A stretch of 64,000 bases of DNA from NCBI GenBank assembly GCA_020353515.1, contig CP070695.1, positions 1,864,041 through 1,928,040 of the forward strand, read 5' to 3'. Made by a program: the position numbers and the translations under genes. The notes under the pieces were generated by a model, which did not search any database, was not told the DNA's origin, and saw only the letters and a list, made by a program, of their open reading frames with translations. Shown here one piece after another: positions 31,257 through 53,830 of this stretch (position 1 is the first letter of the stretch; every line of letters begins with the position of its first letter). The DNA comes from Candidatus Heimdallarchaeota archaeon (GTDB taxonomy: Archaea; Asgardarchaeota; Heimdallarchaeia; Hodarchaeales; Hodarchaeaceae).

Positions 31257-32204
31257 TCATTTCTTTCGACGACGAGATATGAGAGCTGCTAAGATAACAA
31301 AGCTAGTGGTAACTATAGCAATCTCAAATCCAGGAGCAGCAGCTGGCCAATCTCCAGTCAAATCAGTGTCTAATGAGATTTCTAGCGTCTTTAATCCGTT
31401 TGTAAGGTCTGTGGCGTTATTTGCGATCACTGGGTATTTGATATAGGGGTAGGTGGAGTTTGGGGTTGTTTGTGGATGAGTTGAAGGATAATCAATAGTC
31501 TTAATGACTCCATGTTTTGCATCAATTGTAAGATCAAATGCCATATGTAATTGGTCTCCAGCATAACCCATGGGTTTTCCTGGTGGATCACCTGGCATTT
31601 CTGTTCCATTAGGCCACATTGCGGTTTGTACTGTGGTAATCCATGCGTTGACTTCATCACCATCTTCTGCATTTTCACCAATTACTTCTAATTCTGCTGT
31701 GTCTTTTTCCACATTGAGGTTCCAAACACTCTCAGACATTGAGGAGAGTGGTAATGGGTAGCTATTATGCCAGTATCCTTCCATGAGCTTTATCCCAGAC
31801 ACTACTCCGCCAGAATAATGCAGATACACTGGAAGAACAAGGCACATTAGTGCTTTGCTTTCGTTTTCATCAGCTTTTGTGTCTCCAACAGTAACTTCAA
31901 TGGAACTCCAATTATAGAAAGGTATTCCAGTAGACGGTGTATCTTTGGTGATTTCGATCAAGGTCTTGTTAAATTCTTTCCATTCAAACTTAATTTTTTC
32001 ACCCTCTGCAAGGGTCATTCCTAAGTAGGGCCATTCCCATGATGTAGTATCATTCTCATCTGCAAGGTTATCGATGGTCCACTCGAAAATCGCACCAGTC
32101 TCATTCGCTGGTCCCCAAGAGAGAGAAACATCTGCAGAAACTGTGCTAACACAAGAGAAGGCGATGGAAAGGAGAAGAATTGAAAATATATATCTTTTCT
32201 TCAT
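31257..32204 (-). CDS. Secreted surface protein with PGF-CTERM sorting signal
   Basis: Signal peptide MKKRY...VSA; C-terminus APGFE + TM + RRRKK; several sequons. Confidence 0.88.
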   Translation of the reverse strand: MKKRYIFSILLLSIAFSCVSTVSADVSLSWGPANETGAIFEWTIDNLADENDTTSWEWPYLGMTLAEGEKIKFEWKEFNKTLIEITKDTPSTGIPFYNWSSIEVTVGDTKADENESKALMCLVLPVYLHYSGGVVSGIKLMEGYWHNSYPLPLSSMSESVWNLNVEKDTAELEVIGENAEDGDEVNAWITTVQTAMWPNGTEMPGDPPGKPMGYAGDQLHMAFDLTIDAKHGVIKTIDYPSTHPQTTPNSTYPYIKYPVIANNATDLTNGLKTLEISLDTDLTGDWPAAAPGFEIAIVTTSFVILAALISRRRKK

Positions 32205-32606: not shown

Positions 32607-34742
32607 CTAGCGTTTTTGTTTACGAAGATAGGCTGCTACACCAACACACGCTATTAAACCAATGACGATTTCAAAACCTGGGGTTGCTCCTTCTCTTGCA
32701 AGAGCATCTCGGAAGGGTTGTACTTCGTATCCTTCAGTTTCAAACCAATCAAGGGCTAACTCTAGATCGTACGAGTCATAGTGAGTAGTTGCATCTGCTT
32801 CAGGTTTAGATCCATCAGTAGCTGTAATTGTCTTCTTAAACTCTAAGAGATCTGCTGGAGAACATGCGCCCCAATTTGTGATTGGTACAGCGGTATAACC
32901 AGGGACACCTTGACCAGCGAGTAAATATTCGACAATATCTTCACGGGGAATTGCATGAGAAATTCCGTGACGAACTCCTTTCTTCTTTAAGTGATGAACA
33001 CCGTCAGCATCTTCATACTTAGGATTGAAATACAGACATTGCCAACCAGATTCAGTACTAAGGATTGCCGTGATCTTTGCGTGGTCTTGAAGCTCTGCAA
33101 GAATAGGCGCCATAGTGAATTGTGGATCGATTAAGTTCACACTGCCTTCTTTACAGTCAGCCACAATACTGTTCATATCACCTTCAACCATGGTGTATTC
33201 GTCAGGCATATCATCTAACAATCCATCTGCAGCGAGGTAGTGTTGTAGATTTGCATCGTCAACCCATTCTCCTGTTGCATCGTCCCACCTGATTCCATCG
33301 AATTTCTTTAATGTTACGACCTTACTTGTCGGATCACGATTATAGAAGACCAATGATCCACAACCAATAGGCCCTTTATAGCCACCTTCATCAGCTGAGT
33401 TTCCGGTGTTCATTGAGTGTGTGACCCAATTGGCAGGTTGAACTTGCCACAGACTCACATCGAAATCACCTGCAGCATCGAAACCGTGAGTATCTGGGTC
33501 TCCCAAGATATGTTCAGGTTTAGCAGATGTCCCTAGATCGGCAAGGACGAATGGAGCGTAGATTTGGTTGAAATTAAATTCTATTGTCTCATAGAAATCA
33601 TCGTCATCTTCATCTGTCACGGTGAAAGAGTAATTACCATGTTTATTTGCTTTATCATCAGTACCAAATTCTGTTTTAAGAGTTGAGTATGATGAAGATC
33701 CTGCATCTGGTTGAAGTTCTGCTTGGAAGCCAAACGCAATATCCCAGCCATCAAGTAGATGACCATCATGCCAATAGACATCATCTCTGATTTCGATAGT
33801 ATATTGGAGGCCGTCTGTTGAATAAGTTCCCATCGCGGTAGCAATTCGGGGATAACGCTCAAGATATCCACTTGTCCCATAAATGTCGTGGTAATGCTCC
33901 TGCATCCATTCTTCACGATCAACATCGGTAGGAATAATCATTTCACTGGATGGGGTGTTACCGACGAGAGCATCTTGAATGGGACCAGCAACATATTGAT
34001 CGTAAACAGATTTCCCAAGGAAGTCGTAAAATCGTGTACCAGAATCAGAGGATCCAAGAACTACTTTCCCAGCGGTACCAACGTAATCATCTGTAAACCA
34101 ATGATCCTCAGCAGAGGTCATTGGGTAACCAGTAGGATCATATCCATAGAGTCCTGTCGAAACAGCATGTACTTCAGATTGTACGATGACGTAAGTTTGA
34201 GGCATGGCATCATAATGGACTTTCTGCCATTCAACGAGCTGTTTTTTGGCTTCACCGAGATCTAACTCTTTATTAAGAGCATCGATCAGATCAGAGCCTT
34301 CACTTGCTAGATAATCGTTATAATCTTTGCTTCGATTGCTCCACATCGCTACGTTGTATCCAAACGGAGGAACTGCGTCTACGTGGTATATTGCAAGCAT
34401 ACTATTCCCAGGATGACTCGCTGGGGTTCCTACGGACATACCCATGCAGCATATATCATATCCGCCTTCCAAATAGGTTCCAGCCTCATCATAATAACAC
34501 CGAGGCCCCATAGCGGACCATGCAACAAGGTCTAACTCTACATCCACTCCAATTTTAGCAAATTCGGTTTCTAGTAACTGAGCGTATTGCATCCTAACTG
34601 GGTTATTAGTAGGAGCAAGTAGGTGACAACTGAAGAAAGGTTCTAACTCATCTTGAGCTGTAACCATAATTGCTATGTTCCCTAGAAGTGCGAAAGCAAA
34701 AATTAGAGTAAGTATCTTAAAAAGTGTTTTTTTGCTTTTCAT
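32607..34742 (-). CDS. oppA: Peptide ABC transporter substrate-binding protein (family 5), circularly permuted, with PGF-CTERM
   Basis: STDGLQYTIEIRDDVYWHDG, PIGCG, VRHGISHAIPRE and YDLELALDWF motifs; signal peptide; TPGFE + TM + RKQKR. Confidence 0.88.
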   Translation of the reverse strand: MKSKKTLFKILTLIFAFALLGNIAIMVTAQDELEPFFSCHLLAPTNNPVRMQYAQLLETEFAKIGVDVELDLVAWSAMGPRCYYDEAGTYLEGGYDICCMGMSVGTPASHPGNSMLAIYHVDAVPPFGYNVAMWSNRSKDYNDYLASEGSDLIDALNKELDLGEAKKQLVEWQKVHYDAMPQTYVIVQSEVHAVSTGLYGYDPTGYPMTSAEDHWFTDDYVGTAGKVVLGSSDSGTRFYDFLGKSVYDQYVAGPIQDALVGNTPSSEMIIPTDVDREEWMQEHYHDIYGTSGYLERYPRIATAMGTYSTDGLQYTIEIRDDVYWHDGHLLDGWDIAFGFQAELQPDAGSSSYSTLKTEFGTDDKANKHGNYSFTVTDEDDDDFYETIEFNFNQIYAPFVLADLGTSAKPEHILGDPDTHGFDAAGDFDVSLWQVQPANWVTHSMNTGNSADEGGYKGPIGCGSLVFYNRDPTSKVVTLKKFDGIRWDDATGEWVDDANLQHYLAADGLLDDMPDEYTMVEGDMNSIVADCKEGSVNLIDPQFTMAPILAELQDHAKITAILSTESGWQCLYFNPKYEDADGVHHLKKKGVRHGISHAIPREDIVEYLLAGQGVPGYTAVPITNWGACSPADLLEFKKTITATDGSKPEADATTHYDSYDLELALDWFETEGYEVQPFRDALAREGATPGFEIVIGLIACVGVAAYLRKQKR

Positions 34743-41791: not shown

Positions 41792-42799
41792 TTAACTAGT
41801 TTTACCAAATGGTACTTTGCCAGTTCCTTGTAATTCTTTCGGAAAAAAGCAGGCAACCTGATGATCAGGCTTAATTTCGAGTAGTGGAGGTTCTTCTTGA
41901 TGACAGATTTCTTGGGCATATTTACAGCGCATTGCAAAGCGACAACAGAGGGGAGGATCAATTGGCGTTGGTACTTCTCCTGATAAGATTTCTCTTGTTT
42001 TCTTTGTGCGAGGGTCAGGTATAGGTACTGCAGCAATTAATGCCTCTGCATATGGATGCTGAGGATTATCAAATAAAGTCCCCACTTCACCTAATTCAAC
42101 AATTTGACCTAAGTACATCACTCCCACGCGATCACAAACATGTCTTACGACTGAAAGGTCGTGTGAAATGAAAATATATGTTAAATCAAAGCGTTTCTGC
42201 AATTCCTCTAAGAGATTGAGAACTTGAGCTCGAACAGAAACGTCTAAAGCTGACACTGGTTCGTCCATTATCAAGACCTCTGGTTGTACAGCTAGTGCCC
42301 GCGCTATAACTACTCTTTGTCTTTGTCCCCCAGAGAATTCATGTGGGTATCTGTATAGATGAAAATTCGCTAAACCAACAGTTTTCATTAATTGGAGAAT
42401 TCTTTCCTTTTTTTCGCTTCCTTTAGCTAATTTATGTATATCCAAAGGTTCTCCAATAATATCATAGACGGTCATACGAGGATTAAGACTGGAATATGGG
42501 TCTTGAAAAATAAGTTGAATTCGACGACGCATTTTAGCAACAGGATATCTTCTCTGGAAAATATCTTTGCCATAATACCAGATAGTACCTTCTGTAGGAT
42601 TTAATAACCTAAGAATCAATTTTGCCACAGTTGTTTTACCACAACCACTTTCACCAACTATTCCAAATGTCTCTCCTTTCGTTATTGTGAAATTTACGTT
42701 ATCTACAGCGTGGATGTATGAACCTCCACGCGCACCAAAAATACCCATCTGAACAGGGAACTTCTTTGTTAAGTTTTTTGCTTCTAGTATGGTTTCCAT
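41792..42799 (-). CDS. dppF: Dipeptide/oligopeptide ABC ATP-binding protein
   Basis: [18 protein letters not shown] and DEPVSALD motifs. Start moved to ATG 42799 to avoid overlapping dppD. Confidence 0.93.
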   Translation of the reverse strand: METILEAKNLTKKFPVQMGIFGARGGSYIHAVDNVNFTITKGETFGIVGESGCGKTTVAKLILRLLNPTEGTIWYYGKDIFQRRYPVAKMRRRIQLIFQDPYSSLNPRMTVYDIIGEPLDIHKLAKGSEKKERILQLMKTVGLANFHLYRYPHEFSGGQRQRVVIARALAVQPEVLIMDEPVSALDVSVRAQVLNLLEELQKRFDLTYIFISHDLSVVRHVCDRVGVMYLGQIVELGEVGTLFDNPQHPYAEALIAAVPIPDPRTKKTREILSGEVPTPIDPPLCCRFAMRCKYAQEICHQEEPPLLEIKPDHQVACFFPKELQGTGKVPFGKTS

Positions 42800-42809
42800 G
42801 ACAACCACT

Positions 42810-43832
42810 TTAACTGTAAAGATGACACCGGACAAAATGGCGAGGGCCAATCTCTATTCTTTCAGGAACTTCCTTACTACATATATCCATAACTTTTTTA
42901 CAACGGGGATGAAATCTACATCCTGATGGGGGATTAATTAAATTTGGAATGGATCCCCGAATTACTTCTAAATGAGTAAGCTTACGATCTACTCTTGGAA
43001 TAGATGATAACAAATCTTTGGTATAAGGATGGGCGGGATTTTCAAAACATTCCAAACAGGAATGTTCTTCAACAATATATCCAGCGTACATCACTGCTAA
43101 TCGATCAGCAATTTCAGCTACAACTGCAAAATTATGAGTAATGTACAACACAGATGTTTGGTATTTTTGTTTAAGCTCTTCAATTAGATTAAGTACCTGG
43201 GCTTGAATGGTAACATCTAAAGCTGTTGTAGGTTCATCTGCTATTAATAATGCTGGTCTGCAAGAAAGAGCAATGGCAATCATGATTCTTTGACGCATTC
43301 CCCCAGAAAATTGATGGGGAAAATCTTTTGCCCGCTTTTCGGCATCAGGAATACCTACGACTTTCATCATGTTAATAGCTTCTTCTATCGCCTCTTCAGG
43401 ATCCATATTTCTATGAACTCTCAGATTCTCCCCAATTTGGTCGGTCACTGAATATAGAGGATTTAATGAAGTCATTGGATCTTGGAAAATCATTGAGATT
43501 TTTCCACCACGAATTTTCCGCATTTCTTCATCAGACAGCTTGAGGAGGTCTCTATCCTCGAAATAAACTGCTCCACTCATGATCTTAGCTGGAGGAACAG
43601 GCAGCAATTGCAGCATTGAAAGTGCTGATACAGATTTTCCCGACCCAGATTCTCCAATTAGACCAAGGGTTTCTCCCCTATTAATATCAAGATCAATACC
43701 TTCAACAGCCTTAACAACTCCTTCTTCAGTGAAAAAATATACGCATAAACCCTTAACTCTGATTAATGAGTCATTTGGGTCTGTTCCTTTTATAATTTTA
43801 TTTGATTCATCTAATGTAGGAGTATAATCCAA
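42810..43832 (-). CDS. dppD: Dipeptide/oligopeptide ABC ATP-binding protein
   Basis: [26 protein letters not shown] and DEPTTALD motifs. Confidence 0.95.
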   Translation of the reverse strand: MDYTPTLDESNKIIKGTDPNDSLIRVKGLCVYFFTEEGVVKAVEGIDLDINRGETLGLIGESGSGKSVSALSMLQLLPVPPAKIMSGAVYFEDRDLLKLSDEEMRKIRGGKISMIFQDPMTSLNPLYSVTDQIGENLRVHRNMDPEEAIEEAINMMKVVGIPDAEKRAKDFPHQFSGGMRQRIMIAIALSCRPALLIADEPTTALDVTIQAQVLNLIEELKQKYQTSVLYITHNFAVVAEIADRLAVMYAGYIVEEHSCLECFENPAHPYTKDLLSSIPRVDRKLTHLEVIRGSIPNLINPPSGCRFHPRCKKVMDICSKEVPERIEIGPRHFVRCHLYS

Positions 43833-44232
43833 TGATCTTCCCAGCTTTGTGTTTATGTGATGTAGTTAATTCCAAAGATACAATGTTAAATGTTTTTCTT
43901 TCTTCTTTTCTATTATTAAGACATCAAGCTCAAGTAAAAATTTTCGAATAAAAGAAATCATACTCACACATTTAATATTTGATGGAGTTATTTCAGCTAT
44001 TTAGAAGAAAGTAAATTTAAAAGAAACCATTAACATTTGAATCTTTTATTTTTTATGAAAAATCCCTTTTCTTTAGGCTTTCAAAACATACTTTCTAGGA
44101 AGATTTGACTAGAAGAAAAACCTTAAAAGAGATTTTGCTTTTTATTAAGACCGTTTTTGGAACGTCTTTTTTTTTATTTACAGAAAAAAATAGAGAATTT
44201 CCAAAAATAATCAAAAAAAGGAGATTTAAACT

Positions 44233-46008
44233 CTGAAACACAAATTAAGATTGGTATGTTTTTCTATGATGGTCTTAGGACTAATTGTAGCGAATCTACC
44301 TGTACCTGTTGCTGCAGCAACAGAACTAGAACTAGATTTGTGGTATATGCCAGTAGAAAGGCCCTACTTCCCAGATGCTAAATCTGTAGCTGAAATCATG
44401 CAGGCAGATCTAGATGCGATTGGGATTACCACGAGTCTTAAGACCTATGAATGGGGTGAATATCTCGACCGAACCGAAGATGGTGAACACGATATGTGTT
44501 TACTTGGTTGGAGTGCTGACATAGGTGACCCAGATAATTTCCTGTATGTTCTATTATCTGGTGACTCTGCAGTCGTTGGGACAGCAATGAACGTTGCTTT
44601 CTATGATAATGATGATGTCGATGAATTATTGGATGATGCCCAACAGAGTTTCGTTAAATCTGTTCGAGAACCCTTGTACGAGGAAGCCTGCTGGCTTATT
44701 CACAAAGATTCTCCATGGGTGACCGTTGCTCACTCCCAGAACCTCGCAGGCGTTCTTGACGATGTTTCTGGATATGTAACCAATCCCACAGGACAAGGCG
44801 CAAATGTCTACGCAAACGTATCAAAAGCTGGTACTGAAACATTAATTGTTGCTCGTGGTGGTGACGCAGTCACTCTTGATCCAGCAGAATGGACCGATGG
44901 GCAATCGTGGAAAGTTGGTCGCCAAATTTACGATGGGTTATACAACCTTCCAGCAGATTCAATTGATCCCGAACCTGGATTGGCAACAGGCTATACGACA
45001 TCATCTGACGGATTAGAATGGACCTTTACCCTTCGTGAAGGAGTTCAATTCCACGATGGATCCGATTTCAATGCAGATGCAGTTGTATTCAGTTTTGAAC
45101 GAGCTATGTATTGGGATGACAACACATCGGAATATTACACCGAAGGTTGGGTTCCTCCAGAAGCAGGATATTATGATTACATCTATGGTGGTCTTGATCT
45201 CGAAGTGGAAGCTTTAAGCAATTATGTGGTTAAATTCACAATGGCAAAACCTTACGCACCATTCTTAGCCTCCCTATCCATGGGAGTATTTGCTATAGTA
45301 AGTCCAACCTATGTCAAAGCGCACCCTGGAACTCAAACAACAGATCGTCTTGGTCTTAATCCTGTTGGTAGTGGTCCTTATATGATGGAAGAATGGGTTG
45401 AAGATCAAACAATTACGCTAGAAGCAAACCCAGATTATTGGGGTCCTGCTCCAAAGATGGATACATTAATCTTCAAAGTTATAACAGAAGCAGCAACTCG
45501 AATAGGGGAATTAACGGCTACAACACCAACTGTTGACATTGTTGATAATGTAGCAGCTGCAGACGCTAAAACTGTTGAAGATGCAAGTGGAGTAGATCTG
45601 TTCTCGCAAGCAGGTATGAATGTCGGTTATCTAGCTATGAACGCATTGAAATGGCCATTTAATGACACAACTCAAGTAGATGACCCTGACTTCGGTGGAA
45701 AAACCACTCACGCTTCTTTAGTACGCCGTGCCTTCCACTACGCGATTAATCGCTCCAGAATTATTGAAGAAGTATATCAAGGACGTGCGATCCAAGCTAA
45801 GAATCCATTACCACCTTCATTCTGGGGTTACAACGACTCTGTTGAAGACTATGCATTTGATCCAGATCATGCCAGAGACCTTCTTCAAGATCTCGGATAT
45901 GCAGTTAAAGGTGGAAGAGCAACTGGATTTGATCCTCTCACCACTCTAGTGACTACTTTTGGTGCATGCCTGATCCTTGTTGTAATATATCAGCGAAAGA
46001 AGAGATAA
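44233..46008 (+). CDS. dppA: DppA-like dipeptide-binding protein, circularly permuted, C-terminally anchored
   Basis: DLWYMPVERPY, YEWGEYL, GWSADIGDPDNF, LREGVQFHDG, PVGSGPY and WGYND are DppA motifs in permuted order; the tail is ATGFD + TM + RKKR. The proposed start is CTG 44233 (ORF track: TTG 44251). Confidence 0.92.
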   Translation: MKHKLRLVCFSMMVLGLIVANLPVPVAAATELELDLWYMPVERPYFPDAKSVAEIMQADLDAIGITTSLKTYEWGEYLDRTEDGEHDMCLLGWSADIGDPDNFLYVLLSGDSAVVGTAMNVAFYDNDDVDELLDDAQQSFVKSVREPLYEEACWLIHKDSPWVTVAHSQNLAGVLDDVSGYVTNPTGQGANVYANVSKAGTETLIVARGGDAVTLDPAEWTDGQSWKVGRQIYDGLYNLPADSIDPEPGLATGYTTSSDGLEWTFTLREGVQFHDGSDFNADAVVFSFERAMYWDDNTSEYYTEGWVPPEAGYYDYIYGGLDLEVEALSNYVVKFTMAKPYAPFLASLSMGVFAIVSPTYVKAHPGTQTTDRLGLNPVGSGPYMMEEWVEDQTITLEANPDYWGPAPKMDTLIFKVITEAATRIGELTATTPTVDIVDNVAAADAKTVEDASGVDLFSQAGMNVGYLAMNALKWPFNDTTQVDDPDFGGKTTHASLVRRAFHYAINRSRIIEEVYQGRAIQAKNPLPPSFWGYNDSVEDYAFDPDHARDLLQDLGYAVKGGRATGFDPLTTLVTTFGACLILVVIYQRKKR

Positions 46009-46075: not shown

Positions 46076-47035
46076 TTATTGATAGGTTAATATAAATCTC
46101 TCTATCTGTCGAAATGTATGAATTCTAATAAAACGCTTGAAAATTAAATATAGTTTACTTGTAATTACTAAGAATATAAAAGCAACCACAAAATATTTTA
46201 CAACAACATGGTTTAGACTACTATCAAAGAAAGAACTAACAATATTATTAACTGAAATGAGACTATTAATGATTTCCCAAAAAGATAAAGCAATAGGACT
46301 ATTGGGATTTGGCCATAAGAAAGTATAGTGAACTAAATTAAAAAAGCGAATCAACCCAGTCTCAATGAGGATATACACACCAAGAGGAAAAGCAAGCAGC
46401 ATTCCAGCAATGTACTCTAGCATAAGTCGTGGTTCCCTCCTGAAATAGTCTTTATTTTTGTAAAAACTCTTTAAACTTTCTTCGGAAATATGATAAAGCT
46501 CACCTATAATAATAAATGGTATTAAAATCTCTACAATAGCAACTATATTAATAAGACCAGGTAGTATGACTTGTAACATCAGAGGAAAGACAACCATGAT
46601 AATAAAAGGAAGCGTAAAAGACCCCTCTCTAAAATATTTAATCATAATATCAATAACTGATTGCTGTCTCTCATTAAGACGTGGGGATAGAAATTTTACT
46701 TTGAAAAAATTATTTATAGAAAATAAAACTCCGAATAATAGTAGAAAATAGAACATAACTAATAATTCCGTTACATTCAAATCAATTATAATATCAATTA
46801 AGTTCTGTACTGATATTCCCTTAAAGAACTTAACTAGTGCTTCGTCTCCATACGCGATTATTAGTAATGTATAGGTACAAAATAATCCCACAAGAAAGAA
46901 GATTATCGTTACACTTTGCAGGAAGAATTGCTCTTTCCTTGGTTTTTTTGCCTTGATCAAGCCCTCCGATACTAATTTGACACCCTCCTCAACCTTCTCA
47001 GTCATGAAAATTGTTCGTTCTGGTTCGGAACTCAT
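46076..47035 (-). CDS. Hypothetical multi-pass membrane protein
   Basis: About six hydrophobic segments; 14 nt downstream of dppC and co-oriented with it. Confidence 0.75.
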   Translation of the reverse strand: MSSEPERTIFMTEKVEEGVKLVSEGLIKAKKPRKEQFFLQSVTIIFFLVGLFCTYTLLIIAYGDEALVKFFKGISVQNLIDIIIDLNVTELLVMFYFLLLFGVLFSINNFFKVKFLSPRLNERQQSVIDIMIKYFREGSFTLPFIIMVVFPLMLQVILPGLINIVAIVEILIPFIIIGELYHISEESLKSFYKNKDYFRREPRLMLEYIAGMLLAFPLGVYILIETGLIRFFNLVHYTFLWPNPNSPIALSFWEIINSLISVNNIVSSFFDSSLNHVVVKYFVVAFIFLVITSKLYLIFKRFIRIHTFRQIERFILTYQ

Positions 47036-47049
47036 AATATAAACTCTCT

Positions 47050-48027
47050 TTATCTTTTAAATCGAGGATCAAGTGCCTCGCGTAATCCATCCCCGACCAA
47101 ATTGAATGATAATACGGTGAATAATATTGCCATTCCTGGGAAAAAAACTAAATGTGGACCTGAAGCAAAATATTTTCTTCCATCACCAATCATAGAACCC
47201 CACTCTGCTGTGGGTGGTAACGCCCCCAATCCAAGAAAGCTTAATGCAGCTACTTCTAATATAGCAGTACCTATTCCTAATGTCGAGTAGATAACTAACA
47301 CCCCAAGAACATTTGGCAGAATGTGTTTTGTGAGTATTCTGGGTGTTTTGGCCCCTAAAACTTTAGCAGCCTCAACATAGACTAATTCCCGTTCCACAAA
47401 AGTCTGGCCTCTCACGATCCTAGCATAATAAGGGATATATACAATTCCAACGGCCAACATAGCATTTTCCAGACTATTTCCAAGAATTACTAAGATTGCA
47501 AGGGCTAAAAGAATCGCTGGGAATGCAAGTAATATTTCTAGAATTATAGATATAATTGAATCAATAATTCCCCCAAAATAACCAGCCAATAAGCCAAAAA
47601 AGGTTCCAACTGATAATGAGACAAAAACGGCTAGGAATCCTACGGTTATTGAGATTCTAGCTCCGTAAATTATTCGTACAAAAATATCACGTCCAACATT
47701 GTCGGTTCCAAAAATGTGTTTATCAGATGGTGGTTCAAAACTGGATGCACCACCAGCAAAAATGTCATTTGGTCCGTAGGGGAAGATTGGATAATTGAAA
47801 TAGGTATAGAGAAACTCATCAAGGAAAGAAATTAGAGCTAATAAAAGGAAAAAGCCTAAGATGCCCATACCAAGGAGAGCAGCCTGATTACGACGAAATC
47901 TTTTAATAATTATTCGCCAGGTCGACGCTCCAGAGACACCCTCTGAGGTAGCCAATCCTTCATTGGATATTTCTTCTGAGAAAAGTGTGTTGTTAGATTC
48001 GGATGTTTTTGATATTTCTTCTTTCAT
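47050..48027 (-). CDS. dppC: Dipeptide ABC transporter permease
   Basis: HIFGTDNVGRD, YVEAAKVLG, PPTAEWG and GDGLREALDP motifs. Confidence 0.95.
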   Translation of the reverse strand: MKEEISKTSESNNTLFSEEISNEGLATSEGVSGASTWRIIIKRFRRNQAALLGMGILGFFLLLALISFLDEFLYTYFNYPIFPYGPNDIFAGGASSFEPPSDKHIFGTDNVGRDIFVRIIYGARISITVGFLAVFVSLSVGTFFGLLAGYFGGIIDSIISIILEILLAFPAILLALAILVILGNSLENAMLAVGIVYIPYYARIVRGQTFVERELVYVEAAKVLGAKTPRILTKHILPNVLGVLVIYSTLGIGTAILEVAALSFLGLGALPPTAEWGSMIGDGRKYFASGPHLVFFPGMAILFTVLSFNLVGDGLREALDPRFKR

Positions 48028-48029
48028 CT

Positions 48030-49115
48030 TTAATCCCTCTTATGATAACGCACTCTAGGATCCAAGTATGCATATATGATATCAGTAATCATATTTGCGA
48101 TAACGAATATAAAAGCGACTATCATAACGAATCCCATAATGATTGGACTATCTCTCTTGGTAATACTCTCCCATACAAATTTCCCTACTCCAGGCCATGA
48201 AAAAATCGTTTCTGTTAAAACAGCACCAGCTAGTAGAGCACCTAAATTCAATCCAATAACTGTTATCGTGGGAATCATCGCATTTTTTGTTACATGTTTA
48301 ATAACAACTAATCTCTCTTTAAGTCCCTTCGAACGAGCGGTTCTTACATAATCTTTTCGAAGCTCTTCAAGCATAGAAGAACGCATCATCCTTGCAATAA
48401 CAGCAAGTGGGATTGTTGCTAATGCTAAAGATGGTAAGACAAGCTGACTCACAGTTGAATTGAAAAATGTCCAATTTCCAGTTGTGATACCTGCCATAAA
48501 GGAATCAATTAAATAGAAATTTGTGTATTTTGGTAGATCTGCGCTTAAAACAGGATTAATTCTTCCACTACCTATAAACCAACCAAGATTCTTTGCAAAG
48601 ATATCTTGAAGCATGAGACCTAACCAATAAATTGGCATACTAACTCCAATTAAAGCAATAACCATTGTAAGATAATCCACACGGGTATGTTGTTTGTAAG
48701 CTGAGATTATCCCAATTGGGATACCAATTATCGTGGCTAGTAACATCGAAACCAAAGTCAATTCGATAGTAGCAGGAAACCGAATGCCTAGTTCATAAAC
48801 GACAGGAGTAGAATGGATATATGAAATTCCTAAATCAAATTCAAAAATCAGTTTTTGGATAAAAATTAGATATTGTTCCCATGCAGGCCTGTCTAGTCCC
48901 CATTTTCGCTTTATAGCTGCAATTTTTTCGGGAGTAGGATATTTACCAGCTAATTCTTTCGCGACATCACCAGGTAGAACACGAAACAGAATAAATACAA
49001 TAGTTACAATACCTAAAAGTACAGGTATTGCTCTCAACATCCGTTTTAACGCAAATTTAAGGAAGTCACGAAAATCGGACTGAATTTCCGTAAAAGATTC
49101 ATTTTTATCAGACAT
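48030..49115 (-). CDS. dppB: Dipeptide ABC transporter permease
   Basis: RFPATIEL, SMPIYW, RSSMLEELRKDYVRTARSKGL and ETIFSWPG motifs. Confidence 0.95.
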   Translation of the reverse strand: MSDKNESFTEIQSDFRDFLKFALKRMLRAIPVLLGIVTIVFILFRVLPGDVAKELAGKYPTPEKIAAIKRKWGLDRPAWEQYLIFIQKLIFEFDLGISYIHSTPVVYELGIRFPATIELTLVSMLLATIIGIPIGIISAYKQHTRVDYLTMVIALIGVSMPIYWLGLMLQDIFAKNLGWFIGSGRINPVLSADLPKYTNFYLIDSFMAGITTGNWTFFNSTVSQLVLPSLALATIPLAVIARMMRSSMLEELRKDYVRTARSKGLKERLVVIKHVTKNAMIPTITVIGLNLGALLAGAVLTETIFSWPGVGKFVWESITKRDSPIIMGFVMIVAFIFVIANMITDIIYAYLDPRVRYHKRD

Positions 49116-53005: not shown

Positions 53006-53830
53006 TCAAGAGGAGGAACGAACTGGTATTCTAGACCAAATAATTCCCCAAAAAATTGCTAGATATCCAATAATAAAAATTCCCCCTAGGTAAATATGTG
53101 CTTCACTCCAAACATTAGTTGGGAAATACAAACTTAGAATTATCAAGATTAGGATTCTAAATAGGTTCAATAAATAAACACCTATCATACCCACTGTCCC
53201 AAATGCTATCACATGTTCCCGTTTAAATTCCCGATTGCTTCTTGTAACGTTAACAAAGAAAATAAAACTACTTAAAAAGATTATTAACCCATAAATACCT
53301 GAACATGAATCAATAATTGATATTCGAGTGAAATTTTCAATTTGAATAGTCGTTTTATTTACCAATAATACTTCCTCTGGAGAAAAAGTGAAAAGAAATA
53401 ATATAAAGAAAACCACGAATAATGTGACTAAAGAAAATCGTTTAGAATAAGATTTCATTCTATTTAGGCTTAAAGATTGAAAAACACAAAATGATATCAA
53501 TAAAGTAAGCAAAAGAATCGAATCACTATATTTCAGCATTAGAAAGAGAACTTGAGTAGTTAATTCAGTTAAAATTTCGGTAAAGACTGTTTTTAGAATT
53601 ATCTGATCAATCCGAAATATACAAAGAATGATAATACTTGTCAGAGGATGTATAATCTGACGTTGAGCTTCTTTGAGTAAAAAAATTGCAACAACATAGG
53701 AAATAATAATCGTTAGTAATATAGTTACCCAGTCTGTTGGGAACGGTGAAATTAGTGCATAGAAGACCAAAAAACCTACGACTGTTTCATATAGAAAGAG
53801 AGATTCATATCGATTTGAGCTGCTAATCAA
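53006..53830 (-). CDS. Exosortase/archaeosortase family membrane protein
   Basis: Catalytic-type motifs IIDSCSG (Cys), LNLFRI (Arg) and EAHIYLG (His) in a multi-TM protein. Confidence 0.88.
   Translation of the reverse strand: MISSSNRYESLFLYETVVGFLVFYALISPFPTDWVTILLTIIISYVVAIFLLKEAQRQIIHPLTSIIILCIFRIDQIILKTVFTEILTELTTQVLFLMLKYSDSILLLTLLISFCVFQSLSLNRMKSYSKRFSLVTLFVVFFILFLFTFSPEEVLLVNKTTIQIENFTRISIIDSCSGIYGLIIFLSSFIFFVNVTRSNREFKREHVIAFGTVGMIGVYLLNLFRILILIILSLYFPTNVWSEAHIYLGGIFIIGYLAIFWGIIWSRIPVRSSS

Follow-up and report, generated by a model that had tools for sequence, protein, structure and literature searches.

Few bacterial proteins have been studied as thoroughly as the cluster C substrate-binding proteins such as DppA, OppA and NikA, which are also favoured as biosensor scaffolds. 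The DppA of Escherichia coli is represented by the structures 1DPP and 1DPE and by the complex 8Z1Y/8Z1Z, and its residues R355 and D408 (R383 and D436 of the precursor) hold the dipeptide at its carboxyl and amino ends (PMC12136057). In cluster B, the Tp0684/TpMglB-2 protein of Treponema pallidum ('Type Ic / Cluster Bc') was described as a natural circular permutation that keeps fold and ligand binding, in which the first three strands of the N-lobe now lie at the end of the chain and the hinge is crossed a fourth time, and its authors suspected a link between the odd topology and tethering (PMC4990184). Here we report on a gene at positions 44233 to 46008 of the forward strand in a 64,000-nucleotide stretch of a Candidatus Heimdallarchaeota genome of the order Hodarchaeales (contig CP070695.1; the whole stretch analysed is called the window below), whose product is, as judged from its sequence, a true circular permutation of a DppA-like binding protein of family 5 (SBP_bac_5), cut at DppA 340/345. 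That the product is a functional, naturally permuted DppA-type substrate-binding protein of cluster C is highly probable. It falls in the same SBP_bac_5 cluster C as E. coli DppA and the DppA-like lipoproteins of Bacillota, with 33–45% identity per block, and shares with the E. coli protein the two clamps R355 and D408 and a DppBCDF-type partner importer. Unlike E. coli DppA, its order is rotated, with the counterparts of residues 345–507 first and of 1–340 last, and it scores far below the NCBIfam equivalog cut-off. Moreover, it is tethered by a C-terminal membrane helix, whereas DppA is free in the periplasm and the Bacillota lipoproteins are lipidated at the N-terminus. TpMglB-2 differs in being a sugar-binding cluster B protein of the Peripla_BP type, with no sequence kinship to the studied protein.

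The open frame extends over window positions 44230–46008 (+), and its first common start codon, TTG at 44251, gives a protein of 585 amino acids. The CTG at 44233 aligns with the TTG or GTG start codons of the orthologues and is likely the true start, which would add a K/R-rich n-region (KHKLR) to the signal peptide; starting at TTG 44251 would lose this region. A GGAG lies 9 nt ahead of the CTG at this start-homologous stretch (44233–44253). Residues 1–23 (44251–44319, +) make up a signal peptide with a hydrophobic core followed by VAAA ahead of TE, a layout kept in the orthologues, so that the protein is predicted to be cleaved and exported. Block 1 follows (residues 27–190; 44329–44820), corresponding to the last third of canonical DppA, that is, 1dpp 345–498 plus the old C-terminal tail ending in YANVS, and Block 2 (residues 197–550; 44839–45900) corresponds to the first two thirds (1dpp 2–340). 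Between them, the old C-terminal tail passes through three to four residues into the old N-terminal strand (...YANVS-KAG-TETLIV..., the strand reading TETLIVARGGD); this junction, defined by the phmmer matches and the alignment, takes residues 190–196 (S-K-A-G-T-E-T; 44818–44838), where neither a second signal peptide nor an intergenic remnant is found and the linker is nearly absent. A new C-terminal tail (45901–46005) completes the chain. Searched with phmmer against PDB chains, residues 197–550 match E. coli DppA (1dpp_A) 2–340 with 191 bits, and residues 27–182 match 345–498 of the same chain with 116 bits, the two matches being non-collinear. In the same line, Pfam PF00496 (SBP_bac_5) scores 315.1 bits in two stretches against a gathering cut-off of 32.4, and the canonical N-to-C order of the cluster C fold elements is lost, with profile positions hmm 371–528 preceding hmm 33–367. 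A preliminary description of the gene had proposed that the last third of DppA moved to the front, with a junction at 44821–44840; both points held, local alignment giving two non-collinear matches to DppA and no collinear full-length one, and the old termini being fused at practically the position proposed.

The swapped order is conserved. Among 5.8 billion proteins searched, 29 came up at 55–100% identity, namely the window's own protein (P0001) and 28 relatives; all the named ones come from Hodarchaeales, Hodarchaeota or Heimdallarchaeota, the non-fragments span the full length, and below them there is a sharp drop to bacterial proteins of 38–44% identity that cover ~61% of the query. Against a hidden Markov model (HMM) built from the 91 next-best homologues, all of canonical order, 28 of the 29 (P0001 and 27 relatives) place hmm 371–528 first and hmm 33–367 second, the 29th (P0026) being a fragment without the front block. 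The 27 relatives spanning the junction are 55–89% identical and come from independent ENA, NCBI, JGI and Logan assemblies of several species. Full-length orthologues collinear with the protein occur in four further species of its GTDB genus (59–78% identity) and in named Hodarchaeota metagenome-assembled genomes (MAGs), with 81–84%-identical fragments in a fifth species of the genus (G060). These data bear on the reading of the order as an artefact of assembly or gene calling, either a misjoin or a read-through of two tandem genes. Read-through chimeras are conceivable, given that tandem family-5 genes and tandem-domain proteins occur in Asgard genomes, but the junction is seamless, the contig is a single 4.94 Mb piece, and the order recurs across four data sources. 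Misassembly, an objection already raised in the preliminary description, was rejected because the 27 independent junction-covering relatives keep the order, and an artefactual origin is exceedingly improbable. Nor does it seem at all probable that the front and rear blocks come from two different family-5 genes or that the gene is a decaying remnant. Only three proteins are common to the top-15 canonical matches of each block, a point in favour of a chimera, but both blocks rank 201 canonical proteins alike (Spearman 0.69, p 6e-30), which argues for one rotated gene; P0030 is the top match of block 1 (55% identity) and the 11th of block 2 (44%). Moreover, the reading frame is intact in all orthologues, with a nonsynonymous divergence (dN) of 0.12–0.35, a saturated synonymous one (dS) and a dN/dS of ~0.07–0.2 where computable, a rough figure given the saturation, and the ligand clamps are invariant.

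An AlphaFold2 model made from the 29-sequence alignment has a predicted local distance difference test score (pLDDT) of 85.5, with both blocks mostly above 85, and a predicted template modelling score (pTM) of 0.81. Its residues 196–554 superpose on 1dpp_A 1–344 with a Z-score of 24.9 and a root-mean-square deviation of 2.8 Å over 330 residues; together with the sequence match of block 1, this confident model points to the two-lobed fold of the DppA/OppA type. Residues R37 and D90, both in block 1, correspond to DppA R355 and D408, and all 19 clade members compared keep R37, Y39 and D90 (DppA R355, Y357 and D408) unchanged, the R37 and D90 clamps being absent from the alignment of more distant permuted Asgard families. 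As the chain is rotated with all the DppA fold elements kept, its fold and peptide-binding site should be those of DppA. The mature chain would start at the strand following DppA residue 344, its front block carrying both clamp residues, would run to the old C-terminus and from there directly into the old N-terminus, building the first two thirds of the fold, and would end its last fold element at the helix preceding DppA residue 341, with the membrane helix and basic tail ~11 residues further on. From this layout we infer a tether geometry in which the free ends and the membrane tether leave from the DppA 340/345 loop. Most likely, di- or short peptides would be bound through R37 and D90 and passed to the DppBC-DppDF importer, whose genes flank that of the binding protein.

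Several points weigh against this picture. Foldseek and VIA-align matched only residues ~192–555, both being sequential structural aligners, and block 1 (27–182) is tied to DppA 345–498 through its sequence. The ligand is read from two conserved residues, and the NCBIfam DppA equivalog NF043070 gives 320.7 bits against a cut-off of 1005. In the DppB-like permease of the window (48030–49115), the E41/R42 pair of the E. coli DppB scoop loop, which contacts the DppA ligand clamps, is replaced by K/Y. Finally, a close tandem-domain intermediate of the studied clade is missing among the longer proteins, although this is weak evidence.

A survey of Asgard SBP_bac_5 proteins for split, reordered Pfam matches, as the preliminary description had suggested, found such proteins both in this genome and beyond it. 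By Pfam and the canonical HMM, about 12 of the 14 intact family-5 genes of the genome are permuted, at two cut points. Four of them share the cut at hmm 367/371 (the studied gene, the one at window 32607–34742, C1:3172486 and C1:1254827), eight paralogues are cut near hmm 230 and two are in canonical order. The paralogues cut near hmm 230, among them C1:135426-139571, 1205325-1209833, 1692715-1694658, 3236906-3238882, 3939008-3941041 and 4009444-4011630, place hmm ~231–368 first and ~33–230 last, carry mostly long Thr/Pro-rich linkers and PGF-type tails, and include two pairs of tandem genes. The gene at window 32607–34742 (-) encodes a very divergent family-5 binding protein of 711 amino acids with a Heimdall-CTERM match of 26.9 bits. 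Its 69 strong relatives (E <= 1e-91) are mostly one-piece matches over 84–100% of the query, seven short or partial ones covering 54–69%, and the named ones are all Asgard (Hodarchaeales, Heimdall, Hermod, Promethearchaeota). Directly downstream, window 31257–32204 (-) encodes a 314-residue protein whose sole family match is a Heimdall-CTERM tail (24.2 bits). Elsewhere, other families of the Heimdall group (L001-L009) share the hmm 367/371 cut, which was met a single time in another Asgard family (L005), and a second Hodarchaeales family (L017) holds a relative cut near hmm 300. In a second Heimdall-class genome most profile matches end at position ~287, which fits the hmm 367/371 cut, and in four genomes of other Asgard families the family-5 genes are all canonical. 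Giant proteins with at least two complete canonical family-5 domains in tandem were also seen in another Asgard family, at L012 (1011–5576, +), L014 (3–9440, -) and L020 (695–3196, +), and look like the fused state from which permutants would be trimmed.

Circular permutation is not confined to the Asgard archaea; it is recurrent in the family-5 binding proteins of archaea and bacteria. In an exhaustive phmmer search of 1.84 billion cluster representatives, the 150 nearest were examined, one of which (P0012) belongs to the studied clade; the remaining 149 comprise 116 canonical single-domain proteins and 33 that depart from this pattern. Six of these 33 (P0251, P0252, P0263, P0298, P0335 and P0347) have the same hmm 367/371 cut with a lipobox signal and, in contrast to the studied protein, lack a C-terminal anchor. 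P0263 is from a Planctomycetota MAG, and the bacterial origin of P0251, P0298, P0335 and P0347 is read from their lipobox signals together with the named members P0263 and P0384. Another six are cut near hmm 152, with a cluster member from Anaerolineae (P0384), and others near hmm 200 (200–230, P0238) or near 280–300 (P0368, from Methanofastidiosia, and P0305). Several of the 33 are tandem-domain proteins, P0213, P0300 and P0355 being single chains with tandem full family-5 domains. In a tree of the re-ordered sequences, five of the six lipobox permutants stand beside or among canonical proteins, and P0263, P0252 and P0335 each have a canonical protein as partner, with 91–100 support in the Shimodaira–Hasegawa-like approximate likelihood ratio test (SH-aLRT). 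P0347 pairs instead with the differently cut P0305 (100 SH-aLRT); these two lipoproteins are sisters with branch lengths of 0.26 and 0.22 and cuts at hmm ~370 and ~279, which suggests that a gene already permuted or duplicated underwent permutation a second time. The clearest view of the route is provided by P0252, whose cluster has four members from three or more assemblies and which is 68–75% identical to a canonical Chloroflexota protein. Its residues 39–239 correspond to canonical 413–606 and its residues 244–584 to canonical 77–418, with an overlap of six residues, and the canonical N-terminus recurs in its signal peptide and acidic linker, the original signal peptide having been kept. 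Overlap and retained signal peptide are the footprint expected of tandem duplication, fusion and deletion. Permutation has occurred repeatedly in this protein class, most likely when a gene was duplicated in tandem, the copies were fused in frame and both ends were trimmed, which is also the probable route of the studied clade.

The new C-terminus of the protein reads ...LLQDLGY-AVKGGRA-TGFD-(19 hydrophobic residues)-QRKKR, that is, an 11-residue linker, the TGFD motif (558–561), a hydrophobic helix (562–580) and a basic end, much as the preliminary description had it (ATGFD, membrane helix, RKKR). This small motif, hydrophobic helix and basic tail repeat the layout of the PGF-CTERM/ArtA and Heimdall-CTERM anchors, and sorting-enzyme genes are present in the genome. 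Unlike those anchors, the tail stays below the cut-off of 24 bits of the Heimdall-CTERM model NF045529, scoring 13.3 bits when the protein is searched and 17.7 when the genome is scanned. The match is limited to profile positions 7–26 of 26, with TGFD in place of PGFE, and the PGF_CTERM model has no match on this protein. At E <= 1, only 8 of the 29 aligned clade members match Heimdall-CTERM. By comparison, at least 30 proteins of the genome exceed the cut-off, including other family-5 binding proteins with 26.9–35.6 bits. Three TIGR04178 matches above cut-off represent the exosortase/archaeosortase family in the genome. One of them, of 42.9 bits, lies in the window at 53006–53830 (-), adjoining asnS, and its product is a candidate sorting enzyme for the many Heimdall-CTERM proteins. 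No ArtA (TIGR04125) reaches its cut-off in the genome (best 35 bits against 75), and PF09721 (Exosortase_EpsH) has no match there either, which is weak evidence since a Haloferax control was missed too. The C-terminal tether of the permuted DppA-type protein is real, whereas processing of its TGFD tail by an archaeosortase is doubtful.

Two further questions are whether the Hodarchaeales clade acquired its order by a permutation of its own and whether the anchor was the reason for it. Together with four Asgard-like cluster representatives (34–44% identity) the clade forms one group (100 SH-aLRT), which is nested in the canonical DppA-like set (97 SH-aLRT) away from the other same-cut Asgard families. 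This placement speaks for a bacterial-type dppA having been permuted separately in the Hodarchaeales line, as do the identities of 40–45% to canonical bacterial DppA-like proteins against 23–28% to the other Asgard families, and the lack of R37 and D90 in the latter. In addition, the same cut clearly arose independently in bacteria. On the other hand, the order may have been inherited from the ancestor of the other same-cut Heimdall-group proteins. The cut at hmm 367/371 is identical in all of them, and in an approximately unbiased (AU) test a tree that unites all same-cut Asgard proteins in one clade is not rejected (p 0.303), its log-likelihood being 26 lower; an independent origin of the studied clade is therefore not claimed as shown. 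Altogether, we regard a separate permutation as somewhat the likeliest course, shared inheritance as a credible but less probable one, and the import of an already permuted gene as improbable. As for the cause, the permutation might have been selected because the new C-terminus can bear an archaeosortase-type anchor, as the preliminary description had put it for a sortase-type signal. In all permuted paralogues of the genome the C-terminus consists of a PGF-like motif followed by a membrane helix and a basic tail, which together with the three sorting-enzyme genes, one of them in the window, and the abundance of Heimdall-CTERM proteins would suit such selection. The tethers are also short (~9–20 residues) in proteins with the DppA 340/345 cut, compared with Thr/Pro-rich linkers of ~35 residues in canonical proteins and in those cut near 230. 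However, canonical-order paralogues of the genome bear the same type of signal at their ends, and one of them, C1:4271332, with a long Thr/Pro-rich linker, has the best Heimdall-CTERM score of the genome (35.6 bits), so a canonical C-terminus can carry the signal and no permutation is needed to create an anchor site. The tail of the permuted DppA-type protein, by contrast, stays under the cut-off with its TGFD and finds echo in few clade members, and the same-cut bacterial proteins use an N-terminal lipobox. Selection for the anchor thus looks unlikely, and this part of the earlier proposal is not supported.

The gene lies, on the opposite strand, within a cluster for a Dpp-type ATP-binding cassette (ABC) importer, and is thus encoded together with DppBCDF-type permeases and ATPases. 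On one side, Pfam identifies a DppF-like (41792–42850, -) and a DppD-like (42810–43832, -) ABC ATPase, both with ABC_tran and oligo_HPY domains. On the other side, there are a multi-pass membrane protein (46076–47035, -) that matches no Pfam or NCBIfam family and stands between the binding-protein gene and DppC, a DppC-like permease (47050–48027, -; OppC_N and BPD_transp_1) and a DppB-like permease (48030–49115, -) that aligns over its full length with E. coli DppB (280 bits). The neighbourhood of the DppD-like gene is kept in L021-L024; the order DppF-DppD, binding protein, membrane protein-DppC-DppB is maintained in L022 and L023 and rearranged in a third species. Copies of the membrane protein with 31–46% identity occupy the same position in three other species (L021-L023), and this protein may be an extra component of the importer. 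The best reading of the permuted protein is that of a putative peptide-binding receptor for the adjoining DppBC-DppDF importer.

A natural permutation was already published for cluster B, and the cluster C case appears to be undescribed: a full-text literature search, whose coverage excluded subscription journals, brought up no account of permutation in binding proteins of cluster C or of Asgard archaea, and chain order goes unmentioned in a glycoproteomics study of an Asgard binding protein. The novelty that had been claimed for the gene thus survives as regards the literature but not as a trait of Asgard archaea, given its occurrence in Planctomycetota, Chloroflexota/Anaerolineae and Methanofastidiosia. 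The main value of the gene is to be the permuted member closest to a solved canonical system, rather than to be unique to these archaea. As a natural permutant that keeps the ligand clamps, it shows where the fold tolerates new ends and is an experiment of nature in which the influence of the tether point on docking to the translocator can be seen. The pairs of permuted and canonical proteins, up to 75% identical, illustrate cleanly how duplication leads to permutation. On the practical side, the annotation of permuted proteins reads plainly 'ABC transporter substrate-binding protein', and tools that depend on chain order can align no more than two thirds of such a protein, so that models, orthology calls and equivalog thresholds fail silently. 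More tentatively, and with rather low confidence, most peptide-type binding proteins of the Heimdall group might have been rewired, in several independent events and at a few preferred loops, so that the membrane tether departs from another point of the fold; taken with the repeated cases in bacteria, tether geometry relative to the translocator would then be a selected trait of ABC importers that permutation adjusts. If so, circular permutation by tandem duplication would be the usual evolutionary route for adjusting tether geometry, and the DppA-like clade, with its close canonical relatives and the solved complex 8Z1Y, would provide the best natural test pair.

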